Part shown: positions 7,738 through 13,839 of the stretch, in pieces
How the letters are laid out: every line of letters begins with the position of its first letter
Position numbering within the stretch: position 1 is the first letter of the stretch
Virus record (IMG/VR): IMGVR_UViG_3300037313_000454
Span: 1 to 33,489 of that record
Direction: 5' to 3' (one strand)
Source of the DNA: a virus
Taxonomy: Duplodnaviria; Heunggongvirae; Uroviricota; Caudoviricetes
DNA: 33,489 nt
Notes under the pieces: generated by a model
Told to the model about the DNA's origin: nothing
What the model saw: only the letters and a program-made list of their open reading frames with translations
The model's database searches: none
Program-made: the position numbers and the translations under genes

Positions 7738-9991
7738 CTATACTCCCTTCATAGGTCATAGGAATTAGTTTAATAAGCACCTTGCCACTGCGTTCCATAC
7801 AAGCACCGACGAACTTGAAGCATTCCTCAGCGCGGTCAGGCTCAACCTCGATTACGAACTCGTCGTGAACGAAGTTTACAAGCTTTGCCCCGAACTCAGG
7901 TTCAAGGCGGTGCCACATGAAGCCGACACCAGTACTGTCGAATCCACAACCCATTGCAATCTTCGCAAGGTCGGCGTTACTACCTTGAATCGGCGTGTTC
8001 TTACCTTCACGCTCGATGGCCATGAACATTGCTTTGTACTTCTGAGCAATCTTCTTAGTGGACGGCGGGTCGAATGTATCCCGACCTTCCTTCTTAGCCC
8101 GTGCGCGGAGTTCGTCAACAGCCTTCTTAACCGCGTCCGCCCACTCCGGCTTGCGGAAGTAGCGGCGACGATTGGCCAAAGTGCGCGATTCTAGCTTAGT
8201 AACCGCAGACTTTGCAGACGCTTCAAGATACTTGATGAGTGTCGGGAAGGTTGCTCGATACTTCTTGAGCAGGACTTCCGCATACGCTTCATCGCGGTCA
8301 ATAGCCTCGGCCAGCTTCTTAGCTTCCATGCCGTAGGCGATACCAAAGTTCAACGCTTTAACAGCGTCTCTAAGCTCTTTGTGTCCCTTACATTTACACT
8401 TCTGGTGCTTGCTGTAATACGCGCAGCCTTCTTCAGCAGCGTTTTTCCACTCATCACCGAAGAGAATCTCGGCACCGACGGAGTGAACGTCCCAATCCTG
8501 CAAGAAAGCGTCTAAGAACGCCTTTTCCCGACTATATTCAGCCAAAATGCGAAGTTCGCAGCCGTTATAGTCAACGGTAATCATCTTCCAACCGTCGCGG
8601 GGGATAAAACACCCACGCCAGTCACTACCGCGAGGAATATTCTGAATATTCGGGTCTACGCTACTTGTACGCCCGGTTTCCGCTCCCATCTGCTTGATGC
8701 GGGAGTGAATCCTGCCAGTATTCTCGTTAATGTAGTCACGAATGAAGTTCTCGCCGTATGTGGTGAGAATCTTGTTTGTTTCTCGGTATAACCGAATGGC
8801 GTCGATGATTCCGACCTGAGAATAGTCGGGACTCTCTTTCTTGGCTTTTGCCAAGTCCCACTTCGGGTGTTCAGAAATCTTTTTCAGTGTCCGGTCATTC
8901 GTATCCGGTAATTCCTTCTTATCGTAGCCTTTCTTTCGTAATGCGGCGAGAAGTTGAGGATTGGAGCCATAATTGATGGCGGCGTCACCTTCATATGAGA
9001 AAAACTCCTTCTTGGACTTGTTCATCTGCTTACGAGCAGTCATGAACCGCTTACGAGCCTCAGCCCGTAGCTCTTTGTCCGTTGTCGTCTTCCAAATGTT
9101 CTCTAGTTCGACAAGGTCTTCGCTACACTCGCCCTTCTTACCAACTAGGGGAATGAAGTACTCGTCTAGCTTCTGTACATTTCGTTGGTGGTCAGCCTCG
9201 ACTTTAGCGAGGATTCCTCGCCATGCTTCAGTATCCAGCCGGATACCGTTCAAGTGCATGTCAGCAAAGGCTGGCATAGCATCGAACTCAAGTTGGCATG
9301 TCTGCCACAGGTTACCCTTGGTGATGTGCGCGTTCTGTCCTGATTTGACAGCCAAGGGTAGGCGGCAATCAAGAGCGCAATAAATCTTTTGGTTTTCAGT
9401 TAACTCGTCAGTCAGGTTGAAGCTGGTCTGGGCATCTTTGTCGATTTCCAGTCCTGCATACCGTGCAACGCAGTCTTTCAATCCCCAGAAGCCGCGTATA
9501 TTGAAATCAACCCGGCCAGCGTAGATGACCATTTCCGCCAGCATCGTGTCATACACGTTCCACATGCGGAGTCCGAAGCACCACTTCAGTACTTCGTAGT
9601 CAAATTGAAGATTGTGACCTACTTTGAGCCAGTCTTTTGACTCAAGCACCGGACGAAGAACAGAAACCACAGGCAGAAGGCAGCTATGAAAGGTGTAATT
9701 CCCCATAGCTTCCATAAGAGTAAACTGCTGAATTTCTGTATATGCGTAAGTATCGGTAAAAGACTTGAGGTCAATGACATACTGTTCTTCCCGGTCACCT
9801 ATCTGAATCGTGCGAATGCGGCGGAGGTAAAAATCTTCCACCATGTTTGTTTCGGTATCAATCGCAAATACCGATTTACGTTTGAAAAACGCTGCAACCT
9901 TTTCCAGCCCCGCCACGTCTGTAACTAGGGTATAGTTCAGGGGTGGGTTTAACTCTGACGGAATGCAGGGTTTCAGATTTGATTGTTCCAT
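7718..9991 (-). CDS. polA: Family A DNA polymerase with 3'-5' exonuclease domain
   Basis: Exo I IDTET, Exo II HNLQFD, Exo III YCALD; motif A DYNGCELRILA, motif B KALNFGIAYG, motif C VHDEF. Start placed at MEQSNL. Confidence 0.95.
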   Translation of the reverse strand: MEQSNLKPCIPSELNPPLNYTLVTDVAGLEKVAAFFKRKSVFAIDTETNMVEDFYLRRIRTIQIGDREEQYVIDLKSFTDTYAYTEIQQFTLMEAMGNYTFHSCLLPVVSVLRPVLESKDWLKVGHNLQFDYEVLKWCFGLRMWNVYDTMLAEMVIYAGRVDFNIRGFWGLKDCVARYAGLEIDKDAQTSFNLTDELTENQKIYCALDCRLPLAVKSGQNAHITKGNLWQTCQLEFDAMPAFADMHLNGIRLDTEAWRGILAKVEADHQRNVQKLDEYFIPLVGKKGECSEDLVELENIWKTTTDKELRAEARKRFMTARKQMNKSKKEFFSYEGDAAINYGSNPQLLAALRKKGYDKKELPDTNDRTLKKISEHPKWDLAKAKKESPDYSQVGIIDAIRLYRETNKILTTYGENFIRDYINENTGRIHSRIKQMGAETGRTSSVDPNIQNIPRGSDWRGCFIPRDGWKMITVDYNGCELRILAEYSREKAFLDAFLQDWDVHSVGAEILFGDEWKNAAEEGCAYYSKHQKCKCKGHKELRDAVKALNFGIAYGMEAKKLAEAIDRDEAYAEVLLKKYRATFPTLIKYLEASAKSAVTKLESRTLANRRRYFRKPEWADAVKKAVDELRARAKKEGRDTFDPPSTKKIAQKYKAMFMAIEREGKNTPIQGSNADLAKIAMGCGFDSTGVGFMWHRLEPEFGAKLVNFVHDEFVIEVEPDRAEECFKFVGACMERSGKVLIKLIPMTYEGSIGDRWQK

Positions 9992-10005: not shown

Positions 10006-10122
10006 GATACCAGACGTTCGTCTCTACAGGGAAGGGACTCGAACCCTTCATCTCGTCTCAGACGCTCTGTTTCACACCAGTACTCCCGCTCCCACCGAGT
10101 TTCCTATCCGGCGTCTGGTATC
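10006..10122 (-). ncRNA. tRNA-like RNA (T-arm present, anticodon loop collapsed) inside an 11-bp closing stem
   Basis: GAAGGG-TTCGAGT-CCCTTC at 10049-10031; GCGGGAG-TA start at 10089; GATACCAGACG/CGTCTGGTATC at 10122-10112/10016-10006; promoter directly upstream. Confidence 0.6.
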
Positions 10123-10180: not shown

Positions 10181-10209
10181 TTGACAAATTTTAAAAAGTA
10201 TGCTATAAT
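10181..10209 (+). promoter_or_regulatory. Consensus sigma70 promoter (rightward, back-to-back with the leftward one)
   Basis: TTGACA, 17 nt, TATAAT with an extended -10 TG. Confidence 0.9.
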
Positions 10210-10315: not shown

Positions 10316-10344
10316 TTGACAAATGACGAAAGGTGTGGTATAAT
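10316..10344 (+). promoter_or_regulatory. Consensus sigma70 promoter for a leaderless HTH gene
   Basis: TTGACA, 17 nt, TATAAT; ATG at 10351 coincides with the expected +1. Confidence 0.9.
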
Positions 10345-10350
10345 AGATTT

Positions 10351-10602
10351 ATGAATGTGAACGACTATAGCAACCTCGGGACGTGGCTACCGCCGCTCAT
10401 CGAGAAGCTAGATATGAGTTACGAGCAGTTTGCCCGTGCAGTCGGGGTGACCCGCTCGATGATTTACTACTACATCAAAGACCGCTATCGCCCGGACGAA
10501 CAGACCATGATTCGCATGTGTCAGATTTTAGGAGTTCCGGCAGAAGAGGGCTTTGCTCAATATACACCCCGCAAGGTCGGGCGACCGAAAGGACTAGTTT
10601 GA
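10351..10602 (+). CDS. XRE/Cro-family HTH regulator (83 aa)
   Basis: MSYEQFARAVGVTRSMIYYYIKDRYRPD HTH pattern. Confidence 0.9.
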   Translation: MNVNDYSNLGTWLPPLIEKLDMSYEQFARAVGVTRSMIYYYIKDRYRPDEQTMIRMCQILGVPAEEGFAQYTPRKVGRPKGLV

Positions 10603-10818
10603 TTGGGTCGTTTATACTTTTTCGCTTGCCGAGATTGCAAGGTTATATGCGACGAACCAGCAGGTAAGAACTCTGCTGCCTATGGATTATGGAACGAAGG
10701 TAACCGGGTCGCGGATTTTGTCCATGAACATGAAGGTCATGCTCTCGAATTTATGGATGAGCATAGAAGTTCTAGTCTGCGGTTTGATTTCCCTGACGAC
10801 TCTTGGGCTTCCGTTTAG
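10603..10818 (+). CDS. Hypothetical protein (71 aa) with CxxC
   Basis: TTG start right after the upstream stop; CRDC ... HEGH. Confidence 0.7.
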   Translation: MGRLYFFACRDCKVICDEPAGKNSAAYGLWNEGNRVADFVHEHEGHALEFMDEHRSSSLRFDFPDDSWASV

Positions 10819-10948
10819 TACATTGACACTTAGGACGACACGGTTTAATCCCGCAGTACTTGCGACCGCAGTGTGTGCAGTTATTGAATTGGTCAGGATT
10901 ACGCATCTGGCGGCAGGATGAGCAGGTTCTTGGGAAACGATGTGGCAT
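10772..10948 (-). CDS. Eight-Cys zinc-finger-like small protein (58 aa)
   Basis: C-x2-C-x11-C-x2-C-x4-C-x4-C-x3-C-x-C; no clear RBS; overlaps the convergent gene. Confidence 0.5.
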   Translation of the reverse strand: MPHRFPRTCSSCRQMRNPDQFNNCTHCGRKYCGIKPCRPKCQCTKRKPKSRQGNQTAD

Positions 10949-11103
10949 ATAGGGACTAGGGTGAACTGACAGTACCTCTGTCAGCATCTACTTACAATAA
11001 GTATGAAACCTTAGTTTTAATGACTCTGCAAATCTACTACGGATTCATATTGACTAAGTGGTTAATAATCAATAATTTAACTAAATACCTATACATATAA
11101 CCC

Positions 11104-11132
11104 TTGACAAATCAACAAGTTAGTGTTATAAT
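11104..11132 (+). promoter_or_regulatory. Consensus sigma70 promoter
   Basis: TTGACA, 17 nt, TATAAT. Confidence 0.9.
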
Positions 11133-11178
11133 GGTATTGTAAAGTAGAGAAAGTACACTCTTCTGAGGGCCGAACCGC

Positions 11179-12057
11179 ATGGATAGTATTGAAAATAAAG
11201 CACAAAGTGCCGTTAACGCACTTTTAGCTATCACCCAACCAACGGTGGATGCCGTTGATGCTCTTAAAGTCGAAGCTCAAACGCAGATTGCCGACCTAAC
11301 GAACAAGTTGCTGGTAGCTACCAATGCTATCGCTGCCGATTCTGTGCAGATACAGAAGCTCAAAGACCAGATTGCTGCATTGTCCATCCCGGCTTATCCC
11401 GGCTTTTCGGACATGCAGATGCATGGAAACTGGGAAGTTCACCCCGGTTCTGAGGCTGGAATCGGGTCTTGGACACCCGGAACCACCTTTTCGCAGACTC
11501 AGTACCAGAAGCAAGGCGATGCACAGTATGCAATGAAACTGTCCATCAAACCAGTCACAGGTGGTTATTCTGATGTCTTGTGGGCCATTCATCGCCGTCC
11601 GGTTCCCAAACCTGCCGCAAAGATGACTTTGAAAGGTCGTCTTTGGATAGACGACAATACAGGCGTTCAGTGCTTGGAAATTGATTCCCTTGTAACCCTC
11701 GGTGGTTATAAGTACAACATGTCTTCCCAGATTAACTATAGCAAGGGCGGAATGTTGCAGGTAGCACACGGCTCTACTTCTTGGTTTGATACACCCATTG
11801 TGGTCGGTAAACTGACCACTGGTGTTTGGCATGAATTCCAATGGGAATATGCCTATGACACGGTCGCCAAGACCTTGTCTTTCCTAGCTTTCACGCTAGA
11901 TGGTGTGCGGTTTACACTACCCACACAGTTCCAGAATATCGCACCAATCGCTACGAATTGGTCAGACGGAGTGCATCTGCAACTCCAACTAGATGCGAAC
12001 AATAAGGGAGTTGGTTATTCCGTTTGGTATGACCGTCTCTCGTATACATTCGAGTAA
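11179..12057 (+). CDS. N-terminal coiled coil plus ConA-like/lectin beta-sandwich domain
   Basis: Heptad-rich first ~70 aa; Trp/Tyr-rich beta domain with LEID, GVWHEFQW, QLQLD, VWYDRL. Confidence 0.7.
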   Translation: MDSIENKAQSAVNALLAITQPTVDAVDALKVEAQTQIADLTNKLLVATNAIAADSVQIQKLKDQIAALSIPAYPGFSDMQMHGNWEVHPGSEAGIGSWTPGTTFSQTQYQKQGDAQYAMKLSIKPVTGGYSDVLWAIHRRPVPKPAAKMTLKGRLWIDDNTGVQCLEIDSLVTLGGYKYNMSSQINYSKGGMLQVAHGSTSWFDTPIVVGKLTTGVWHEFQWEYAYDTVAKTLSFLAFTLDGVRFTLPTQFQNIAPIATNWSDGVHLQLQLDANNKGVGYSVWYDRLSYTFE

Positions 12058-12187
12058 GGTATCTACGCAGTGGTTCGCCCACAGCGTTTGCGGCGTTGTC
12101 TCACCACACGCCAGCCGGAACCCAGAGTTCCCATGACCTACCACTAGTCATCGCCCACGATTAGTAGGTAGGTGCAATAATAATTAT

Positions 12188-12252
12188 GGAAGAAGTGTGG
12201 CCTTGAAAACTACAGAGGGCTGGTCACCGTAATACCTCTGATTCTTCCGCCT
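12188..12252 (+). ncRNA. D-armless tRNA-Ser(UGA)-like mini RNA
   Basis: 7-bp GGAAGAA/TTCTTCC stem, G discriminator, anticodon arm TGTGGC-CTTGAAA-ACTACA, no D arm, non-canonical third stem; terminator follows. Confidence 0.5.
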
Positions 12253-12259
12253 ATAACAC

Positions 12260-12309
12260 ACCCCGCCCTCGCGCCGAAAGGCAGAGCAAATCGGCGGGGT
12301 TTTTATTTT
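12260..12309 (+). terminator. Intrinsic terminator with a nested GAAA hairpin
   Basis: ACCCCGCC/GGCGGGGT then TTTTATTTT. Confidence 0.8.
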
Positions 12310-12618
12310 ATGTTCATTATTGATTGGGTAGTTAACGCTTGGAGCGCACTTATGGCAAAATTTACAGTACACGTCCCTAAAAGAGCCGTTTTTCTTGCTG
12401 ATGGCCAGACCACAGTAGACGAGGGCGGAAGCGTACAGATTCAACTATCCGCTAGCGGTGGTGTAGCCCCATATACATATTCGATGGTTGGCAATCCGCC
12501 TTGGGTAACACTCACCCCGGCTGGGTTGCTCACTGCTTCACCGACCGTTGGAAGTAATGGTCTTGACTATACCTTCGACATCTTTGCTACGGACTCGAAG
12601 GGAACAAAGTCGGCGTGA
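12310..12618 (+). CDS. Ig-like (He_PIG/cadherin-type) domain protein
   Basis: LSASGGVAPYTYS...GLLTASPT...YTFDIFATDSKG pattern. Confidence 0.8.
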   Translation: MFIIDWVVNAWSALMAKFTVHVPKRAVFLADGQTTVDEGGSVQIQLSASGGVAPYTYSMVGNPPWVTLTPAGLLTASPTVGSNGLDYTFDIFATDSKGTKSA

Positions 12619-12776
12619 ATTTAATTAGGTTCAAAATTGTAGCTTGTCCTTTTGACACGTCTGATATTACTGCTGAATACTTTGTAATGGCAGTAGATGA
12701 GCAAGACGCATTACAGGAGTTTAGACGCACCCGTAAAGATGTTCTCGGGGGCGTTAAGGAGATTACTCCGGTATGA
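12615..12776 (+). CDS. Small hypothetical protein (53 aa), not in the ORF track
   Basis: GTGA overlap at the start and ATGA overlap at the end; open frame fills the gap exactly. Confidence 0.65.
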   Translation: MNLIRFKIVACPFDTSDITAEYFVMAVDEQDALQEFRRTRKDVLGGVKEITPV

Positions 12777-13051
12777 GCTTTTTAAAAGAGATTTTCTCAG
12801 AGTGCGATGGTTGCGCGAGTTTTGGTCGTGTTGCTTGCGGCTTCACTGTCGTCTCTACGATGGCATTCATCGGTACATATCTTCATTGGAAACACGAGTT
12901 TCCTACATACGACATTATCTTGGCCTTATCCGTGCTGATGACAGCACCATACGGTGCTAATAAAGCAGCGGAAGCTGTTAGCAACGTTAAAGATGCTATT
13001 ACGCAGATTATAGTCGCCAAGAAAACACCTGCTGTAATACCGACTAAGTAA
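12773..13051 (+). CDS. Holin-like membrane protein
   Basis: 92 aa, two hydrophobic segments, basic C-terminus. Confidence 0.55.
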   Translation: MSFLKEIFSECDGCASFGRVACGFTVVSTMAFIGTYLHWKHEFPTYDIILALSVLMTAPYGANKAAEAVSNVKDAITQIIVAKKTPAVIPTK

Positions 13052-13117
13052 TCGGCGCGGGGACTGCATTATGTGCAGGCATTAACGTCCCCTGACAGTT
13101 TATCAACAAACACCATA

Positions 13118-13159
13118 CCTCGGTGGGGTCTACGCATCCCCACCGGGGTTTTTGTTTTT
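13118..13159 (+). terminator. Intrinsic terminator
   Basis: CCTCGGTGGGG/CCCCACCGGGG then TTTTTGTTTTT. Confidence 0.85.
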
Positions 13160-13230
13160 ATGCGGACATTTTACTGCGGTTGGGATACTGAGGCCCGACC
13201 AAGGCAGGACTCACTCAGGGTAGGACAGTA

Positions 13231-13839
13231 ATGATTCCAGTAACACAAAAGCTACTTGAGGAATCAAGCAAGCGAAAACTAACGACCAAAGAGCGCCGTC
13301 AGTGCGTTGTGTATCTGAAGACCACAATCCCAGATACGACGAATACTGAACTAGCGGAACGTTTCGGTGTAACCGAGCGTACTATCCGCCAAGACTTACA
13401 AGCTTTCCGTAAAGAGAAAGCGCAGTTCATCAAAGAAGATGATGTAGGTCTGATTATTGCCGACATCGCGCTCGATTATGAACGGCAAATTAGAGATATT
13501 GAGCGAAGTAAGCAGAAGGCACCGCTAGGCAGCCTTCGTTATTTGCAACATTGCACTAATGCAATGGATTTGCGCCTGAAATGTGTCAAAGCCCTACAGG
13601 ACTTGGGTTACTACCCGAAGAACCTTGGACAGATGACCGTTCAGAAGTTCGACTTTAAGGCCATCGTCAATAAAGACGGCTCCGTTGATGTGATGAAACG
13701 TGAGCAGTTGATTGCCGACCATCGCAAAGATGTAGATGAAGGAAACATCTTGGATGCGGATTATGACGTGCCGGAGCTAGAGAGTGCCGAGGACAAAGAA
13801 ATCCGAGAAATCGGAAACTCCGAAGCAAACTCGAACTAA
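13231..13839 (+). CDS. terS: Terminase small subunit
   Basis: N-terminal HTH (NTELAERFGVTERTIRQDL), helical middle, immediately upstream of TerL. Confidence 0.75.
   Translation: MIPVTQKLLEESSKRKLTTKERRQCVVYLKTTIPDTTNTELAERFGVTERTIRQDLQAFRKEKAQFIKEDDVGLIIADIALDYERQIRDIERSKQKAPLGSLRYLQHCTNAMDLRLKCVKALQDLGYYPKNLGQMTVQKFDFKAIVNKDGSVDVMKREQLIADHRKDVDEGNILDADYDVPELESAEDKEIREIGNSEANSN

Follow-up and report, generated by a model that had tools for sequence, protein, structure and literature searches.

Is a phage sequence that carries the acceptor stem and the UGA anticodon loop of a serine tRNA, and neither a D arm nor a T arm, still a tRNA, an RNA that imitates one, or what is left of a gene? The question is raised by a 64-nucleotide (nt) element at positions 12188-12251 of IMG/VR virus record IMGVR_UViG_3300037313_000454, a phage of the class Caudoviricetes. 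The record is complete, with 97,489 base pairs (bp) and direct terminal repeats, and the window, the whole stretch of 33,489 nt analyzed here, is its first 33.5 kb; the nearest cultured relative is the Tunturiibacter phage Tunturi_4 (large terminase, 48% identity). The element lies on the coding strand within the 3' untranslated region of a gene for a 292-amino-acid (aa) protein. Its home is a 252-nt spacer (12058-12309) between the 292-aa open reading frame (ORF) and an immunoglobulin (Ig)-like ORF, all on the + strand. A sequence-only reading had described it as a D-armless, tRNA-Ser(UGA)-like mini-gene with its own terminator. Judged by sequence comparison, its likeness to tRNA-Ser(UGA) is beyond chance, and descent from a tRNA-Ser gene is highly probable. 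We put at about even the chance that the element is the remnant of a phage-borne tRNA-Ser gene that has no selected role.

Sequence likeness to tRNA-Ser(UGA)

The Escherichia coli gene serT (L089, K-12 record) served as an unselected reference for a functional-block score, which counts only three blocks: one at the 5' end, one with the anticodon, and one that includes the discriminator at the 3' end. The element scored 28, compared to 18 for the runner-up site in the 97-kb genome. None of 53 other real tRNAs scored above 21 anywhere in the genome, and in 3,296 shuffled genomes the score never exceeded 24. Block-chain tests also ranked the element as the top region of the genome, where it was equalled by between zero and two of 100 shuffles. 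The colinear blocks common to serT and the element are GAAGTGTGGCC, which corresponds to serT positions 2-12, CTTGAAAAC, and CTTCCGCC. By direct reading, the serT T-stem strands CAGAG and CTCTG occur in the element too. Words of 8-10 nt with a tRNA-like sequence elsewhere in the spacer, and 5-mers that are out of order, were rejected as being at noise level.

We then compared the element with natural genes from other bacteria. A pattern-based scan of prokaryote genomes returned at least 120 stretches, on which ARAGORN was run; among the matches listed, at least 48 were distinct tRNA-Ser(UGA) genes of 82-91 nt with the same acceptor stem and G73. The anticodon-loop block CTTGAAAAC is matched exactly in 37 reference tRNAs and the element's 3' block TTCTTCCGCC in 21, while CTTGAAAACTA matches the tRNAs L128, L130, and L202. 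Alignment with an Owenweeksia tRNA-Ser (L182:2374-2461:-) showed 44 of 66 nt to be identical and colinear, including 10 nt of the variable arm. These 10 bases are GTAATACCTC (12229-12238), identical in the two variable arms, and the arm of the element as a whole reads GAGG...GUAAUACCUC. The GGTCAC in its loop was also found in the Flavobacteriales genes L128, L173, and L177. A Ser-specific covariance model gave 16.1 bits (E 0.024) on the element, although this model is biased towards the element's acceptor stem and is a weaker witness than the block tests.

By standard means of detection, the element is not a tRNA. As canonical we counted any tRNA with a covariance score at or above the 29-bit gathering score, or with an ARAGORN call. 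In bacterial mode, ARAGORN called nothing in the window, and in the whole genome it called only a tRNA-Leu(TAG). The mitochondrial modes (-mt, -mtx, and -mtmam) and half thresholds (-ps50) gave no + strand call at the element; mitochondrial mode produced 24 calls elsewhere in the genome, all but one of which are probably spurious. The Rfam tRNA model (RF00005) had no match at E <= 10, either in 11900-12500 or in the whole genome. The prediction that tRNA finders would miss the element was therefore correct.

Shape alone is at chance level. The fold of the 66-nt core was no more stable than those of dinucleotide shuffles (z -0.24). A loose descriptor, consisting of a perfect 7-bp helix, a short linker, a stem with at least 4 of 5 pairs, and a YU-NNN-R loop, had 4 and 2 matches in the genome, compared to 3.3 +/- 2.1 per strand in shuffles. 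Of the proposed tRNA-Ser(UGA)-like character, kinship in sequence is thus supported, whereas the fold is no better than chance.

Parts kept, parts lost, and transcription of the element

Serine identity is set by the acceptor stem and the long variable arm, not by the anticodon (PMC9976931). The acceptor positions singled out by the sequence-only reading, G1-C72, G2-C71, A3-U70, and G73, are indeed bacterial tRNA-Ser identity elements (PMC9976931) and are all present, in a GGAAGAA/UUCUUCC stem whose 7 pairs are all Watson-Crick. The 3' end GCCTA is there as well, with G73 followed by CCUA. The third stem with a 16-nt non-T loop, which was also correctly described, is the long variable arm, and the identity set is complete in this respect too; the loop measures 4-6 nt in the natural genes compared (set A7). 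The tertiary shape of tRNA-Ser, in which a core formed by the D and T arms orients the variable arm, is missing, since both of these arms are absent. Just UGGC is left of the D arm, whose absence was part of the earlier description, and neither a T stem-loop nor a GTTC motif occurs anywhere in 12188-12253.

The 7-nt loop CU-UGA-AA is present as claimed, with U33 and a purine at position 37. The 5-bp stem assigned to it is not, as we found 3 Watson-Crick pairs, 1 G-U pair, and a C-A mismatch at the closing position. An intact 5-bp anticodon stem, UGUGG/CUACA, would leave a 9-nt loop, and it overlaps the third hairpin at C12213 and A12214, so that the two compete. The calculated pairing probability was ~0.2 for the anticodon stem and 0.0016 for the whole cloverleaf.

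Set beside bacterial class II tRNA-Ser(UGA) genes (E. coli serT; the GGAAGAA-type genes of Flavobacteriales, Saprospiraceae, Bdellovibrionota, and Pasteurellaceae; RF00005), the element has the acceptor stem in common at 7/7 pairs, along with G73, C74-C75, U8-C11, CUUGAAA plus A39 and C40, the variable-arm stem GAGG/CCUC, and the loop bases GUAAUA and GGUCAC. In terms of layout, positions 1-7, U8-C11, C32-C40, the variable arm, and 66-75 are retained. Two stretches are lost, one of ~20 nt that spans the D arm with the 5' anticodon stem, the other being the whole T arm; A76 is replaced by U. Gained are a GUG insert, ~10 bases in the variable loop, and UGA or A. The features of the element and its surroundings are listed in Table 1.

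Table 1. Features of the element, the spacer, and the flanking region (positions in the window)
Feature	Position	Strand	Remarks
Acceptor stem, 5' strand GGAAGAA (tRNA 1-7)	12188..12194	+	Pair probability 0.6-0.99
Extra GUG, then UGGC (tRNA-Ser U8-C11)	12195..12201	+	Sole D-arm remainder; TGGC equals L182 8-11
Anticodon loop C32-A38 CUUGAAA, then A39, C40, U, and A of the 3' anticodon stem	12202..12212	+	Loop 12202-12208; anticodon UGA 12204-12206
Long variable arm, stem CAGAGG/CCUCUG (12213-12218/12235-12240), 16-nt loop	12213..12240	+	Pair probability 0.5-0.7
Acceptor 3' strand UUCUUCC (12242-12248), G73 (12249), C74, C75	12242..12251	+	Followed by UA, not A76
Consensus promoter TTGACA-17-TGnTATAAT	11104..11132	+	12/12 matches plus TG; 46 nt before the 292-aa gene
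Extended -10-like box TGcAATAAT	12173..12181	+	Ends 6 nt before G1
Intrinsic terminator	12261..12309	+	7-bp G+C stem around an inner GAAA hairpin, then U5AU4; -22 kcal/mol, z -2.99
292-aa ORF	11179..12057	+	Long N-terminal helix, all-beta C-terminal part; low-confidence model, pLDDT 49
Ig-like 102-aa ORF	12310..12618	+	Hoc-like and Big_9 matches, both weak
Strong 16-bp interrupted hairpin	12134..12176	+	Upstream of the element; whole-spacer minimum free energy z -2.4 without the terminator

Transcripts through the element probably start at the consensus promoter at 11104. The genome has 14 sites of this type (cTTGACAAa, a 17-bp spacer, and TGn before the -10 hexamer), with a perfect TATAAT in 11, and relatives carry promoters of the same type at the matching place. 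Those in the window are at 10181-10209 (+), 10316-10344 (+), 11104-11132 (+), 10165-10137 (-), and 5940-5912 (-). The -10-like box reported in front of the element is at the described distance from G1, but the idea that it forms the element's own promoter was not supported, as there is no -35 hexamer. The best -35 match was 3/6 at 19-bp spacing, compared to 6/6 at 17 bp in real promoters, and the 3' arm of the hairpin at 12134-12176 occupies the position where a -35 hexamer would be needed. The box resembles the genome's other isolated extended -10 matches, and it may just as well be an AU-rich leader in front of an RNase P site, where U occupies -1. The strong terminator that had been reported is genuine and begins 12 nt past the element. 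Since the 11104 promoter lies upstream and the element's own box lacks a -35, the simplest view is that the element forms the tail of the 292-aa mRNA, which ends at the terminator.

Remnant, mimic, or processing signal

Searches of GenBank phages (DNA and protein), IMG/VR (protein, alignment, and three DNA patterns, the matches to which were all unrelated), JGI metagenome contigs, and prokaryote genomes found no relatives of the element or its flanking genes. A covariance model of the cloverleaf as originally drawn matched only itself across 30 sources. Relatives identified by their large terminase, TerL (<= 60% identity), have neither the 292-aa and Ig-like genes nor the spacer. Distant relatives keep a helix-turn-helix (HTH) regulator and the small terminase, with an interval between them that varies from 0.3 to 3 kb. 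Comparison of this interval (10602-13231 in the window) with L002-L011 showed it to be a hypervariable slot with different genes in each relative. Here it contains the 292-aa gene, the element, the Ig-like gene, and two small ORFs, and none of the relatives compared at this slot has the element or the 292-aa gene. The relatives hold 1-7 tRNA genes, in one case with a tRNA-His between the terminase genes, and this genome has one intact tRNA, Leu(TAG).

From these data we infer, with the odds about balanced, that the element is a tRNA-Ser gene remnant without a selected role. The phage lineage would once have carried a class II tRNA-Ser(UGA) gene, perhaps together with that gene's terminator. 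The gene may then have been pared down by deletion of the D arm with the 5' anticodon stem (~20 nt) and of the entire T arm. In natural genes, CCTC ends the variable arm and CCCTC ends the T stem, and slippage between the two would excise exactly the T arm. What is left would now be transcribed merely as the tail of the 292-aa mRNA and would be unusable by the ribosome. A remnant is favored by the gain and loss of tRNA genes in the group, a further degenerate tRNA-like piece in this genome (10021-10108), the hypervariable slot, the weakness of the fold, the lack of a proper promoter, and the absence of a second instance. Phage tRNA pseudogenes and fragments are likewise derived from tRNAs, with whole arms gone, and occur in single lineages of phage groups that gain and lose tRNAs; the element differs from them in its place, which is a 3' untranslated region away from any tRNA cluster.

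Several observations weigh against a remnant that is free of selection. The retained blocks (acceptor stem, U8-C11, anticodon loop, 3' half of the variable arm, and G73CC) show no substitution compared to natural tRNA-Ser genes, despite at least five insertions or deletions (indels), and neutral decay should have scarred the blocks too. The deletions track domain borders, and the extra bases GUG, UACA, and UGA all lie in new pairs, in the stem UGUGG/CUACA or in a variable arm extended to 6 bp. The survivors are the set read by seryl-tRNA synthetase (SerRS), namely the acceptor stem and the long variable arm (PMC9976931), together with the anticodon loop, which looks more like selection than accident. 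Synteny of the 292-aa and Ig-like genes on a contig with 75% protein identity suggests a neighborhood of such age that a neutral relic would have had time to disappear. A selected role, either as a mimic or as a processing handle, is therefore a serious possibility when the two are taken jointly, at less than even probability.

Taken singly, a mimic is a tentative proposal that we consider unlikely. It would be a non-decoding imitation of tRNA-Ser that acts as a decoy or sponge for SerRS, for the anticodon-loop nuclease of a defense system, or for a modification enzyme. In a variant that we hold to be just as doubtful, a 62-nt RNA showing the acceptor stem, variable arm, and anticodon loop would be produced in quantity, as the stable 3' end of a transcript with a strong promoter. 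Blocks that stay perfect among many indels, deletions at domain borders, and newly paired linker bases would all suit such a role, and serine identity resides in the variable arm and acceptor stem rather than in the anticodon (PMC9976931). Countering anticodon nucleases is a known role of phage tRNAs (PMC11455837), the same genome has a Ro60 gene plus Y-RNA-like tRNA mimics, and the element sits downstream of a consensus promoter with its 3' end shielded by the terminator hairpin. However, it is a single instance, with no relatives in IMG/VR, JGI metagenome contigs, or GenBank phages; the variable arm is a competitor of its weak anticodon stem; and fold stability shows no signal. E. coli SerRS is reported to read tertiary shape (PMC9976931), which requires the absent D/T core, and the phage has no evident partner gene, no aminoacyl-tRNA synthetase, and no CCA enzyme. 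Known systems resemble such a mimic in part. In the case of T5 tRNA-Lys and PARIS (PMC11455837), a phage carries a copy of an anticodon loop that a defense nuclease might target, as the element does. The phage tRNAs that escape anticodon nucleases are complete and decode, replacing the cleaved host tRNA (PMC11455837), whereas the element cannot decode; for this reason it could act only as a decoy against such nucleases, and literature searches found no precedent for a non-decoding anticodon decoy. YrlA and bacterial Y RNA modules (RF02553; PMC4201824) are also tRNA mimicry by a phage-encoded non-coding RNA, but they keep the T and D arms in permuted order and have no anticodon loop, and the YrlA covariance model had no match in 11900-12500. 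A processing handle of the t-element type, in which a host RNase P cut and/or 3' trimming would define or stabilize the 292-aa mRNA end or free a small RNA, seems improbable to us. Plant-mitochondrial t-elements, which are tRNA-like structures at mRNA ends and possible RNase P/RNase Z signals, act in this way (PMC1920247). The site directly ahead of the terminator in the 3' untranslated region, the AU-rich single strand with U before G1, the GCC after the helix, and a variable-arm hairpin that lies one base from the 3' acceptor strand and could stack on it are all consistent with this. Known t-elements retain the T arm, however, and mimic the acceptor/T-arm part of a tRNA (PMC1920247), whereas the element has no T arm, and a handle leaves the preservation of the anticodon loop unexplained.

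Chance resemblance in an ordinary structured 3' untranslated region would fit the chance-level shape, the silence of the general tRNA model, and the low score of a Ser-specific model that favors this very acceptor stem. The GAA/UUC-rich strands are low in complexity, and with very many stretches surveyed, rare coincidences are expected somewhere. We nevertheless regard chance as quite improbable, given the margin by which the element led both genome and shuffles in the unselected serT test, and the further independent matches at U8-C11, A39-C40, and C74-C75, to which a natural variable arm adds 10 nt in the expected position. A leader or attenuator of a late operon, comparable to put, nut, or lambda tR', could steer read-through from 11104 into the Ig-like, packaging, and structural genes. 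The only rightward consensus promoters before the 27-kb structural module are those at 10181, 10316, and 11104, and they are separated from the terminase genes by the two strong + strand terminators found between 10 and 14 kb (12261-12309 and ~13100-13160; U-tracts starting at 12300 and 13149). No recurring late-promoter motif was seen in the structural module, so late transcription would need read-through, antitermination, or an unrecognized promoter type. By direct reading, pairing is possible between GAGGGC (12215-12220) and GCCCUC (12265-12270) in the terminator 5' strand. An attenuator is very improbable all the same, because the analysis revealed no conserved antitermination motif, the 6-nt alternative pairing is no more than chance would provide, and the tRNA-Ser identity of the sequence would be left unexplained. 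Bacterial EF-Tu and ribosomes need a T arm, and mitochondrial tRNAs without arms depend on specialized factors. The minimal working tRNA that had been offered as one reading is accordingly hard to credit, even though the acceptor identity pairs, G73, U33, A37, and a long variable arm are all present (PMC9976931). Such an aminoacylated, decoding tRNA-Ser, comparable to those of animal and nematode mitochondria, would have to work without a T arm, a D arm, or a D/T core, with a marginal anticodon stem, and with a 3' end that reads CCU in a phage without a CCA enzyme; in addition, ARAGORN in mitochondrial mode was silent here despite its calls elsewhere. The D-armless mitochondrial tRNA-Ser(GCU/AGY) of animals and the armless nematode tRNAs have a short connector where the D arm would be, and serine-family membership, in common with the element. 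Mitochondrial tRNA-Ser, however, has a T arm as its main identity element, depends on the T loop for recognition, and lacks a long variable arm (PMC9976931), and the element is the reverse.

Two other candidates were rejected. The core of a phage attachment site (attP) is contradicted by tRNA identity that is not contiguous to the 3' end and by the presence of both tRNA ends. A search for a repeat or target of the element elsewhere in the genome returned just chance 10-11-mers.

Neighboring genes, other tRNA-like pieces, and significance

The 292-aa and Ig-like ORFs stand upstream of the terminase genes on the same + strand. The 292-aa protein had no family matches in domain searches or a protein atlas, and its structure model was too poor to serve as a search query. 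Among 5.8 billion proteins, only two homologues were found for the 292-aa protein (75% and 71% identical) and only two for the Ig-like protein (91% and 75% identical); the 75% Ig-like homologue and one 292-aa homologue are encoded on a single 3,751-bp contig. An alternative start of the Ig-like ORF at 12354 is preceded by a GGAG ribosome-binding site. The 14-codon extension before this ATG (12310-12353) is open and M-initiated in all three Ig-like homologues (M-x-IIDW-x-V-x-AW-xx-L), so the ATG that abuts the terminator U run may be the real start. The G+C content of the spacer is coding-like (0.50-0.54), compared to AT-rich promoter regions, but coding DNA was rejected, as the spacer has no ORF beyond MTYH-stop and MEEVWP-stop.

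A second degenerate tRNA-like piece was observed in the window at 10021-10108 on the minus strand, in the leader of polA. It has a perfect T arm, GAAGGGUUCGAGUCCCUUC, and UGAAA at the anticodon-loop position, it is the top match of the Ser-specific model (16.5 bits, E 0.018), and it lies in a leader that an 11-bp stem closes, with a U run after it. Position 10051, the called start of polA, falls inside this piece, and the ATG at 9991 may be the real start. Among the relatives, the 87.7-kb phage G003, which has direct terminal repeats, encodes a 76-nt class I tRNA with the anticodon UGA, U73, and no long variable arm (L093:1501-1576), and for which normal charging by SerRS is hard to envisage; it was rejected as kin of the element, as its sequence is unrelated. 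Many relatives have a TerL of ~700-830 aa with the homing-endonuclease domains PF14528 and PF05204 (P0017, P0038, P0051, P0055, P0072, P0080, and others), which points to inteins, while the window's TerL has 487 aa and no homing-endonuclease domain.

Elsewhere in the genome, the YrlA model (RF02553) gave sub-threshold matches at 87,184-87,461 (minus; 41.1 bits, E 1.3e-6) and 89,014-89,235 (minus; 19.4 bits). Both units have a perfect T arm followed by a D arm, and a 456-aa open frame upstream of them has a TROVE/Ro60 domain; the observation includes the locus L224:1184-1433. The locus at 87-89 kb is a phage Ro60 and Y RNA module; RtcB was not found. A third unit with a T arm followed by a D arm was observed at 73,871-73,944.

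If the element is a relic, it shows a route by which phage tRNA genes decay, with whole arms lost, one of them perhaps by slippage between short repeats. Pieces of this kind are overlooked by tRNA finders and fold statistics, and a simple block comparison detects them. If the element is selected, it would be, to our knowledge, the first tRNA look-alike that keeps the parts read by SerRS and the anticodon loop without the elbow that faces the ribosome. It would then be a candidate decoy in the tRNA-centered arms race between phages and bacterial defenses, and a phage that carries Ro60 and Y-RNA-like mimics is a reasonable place to seek one.

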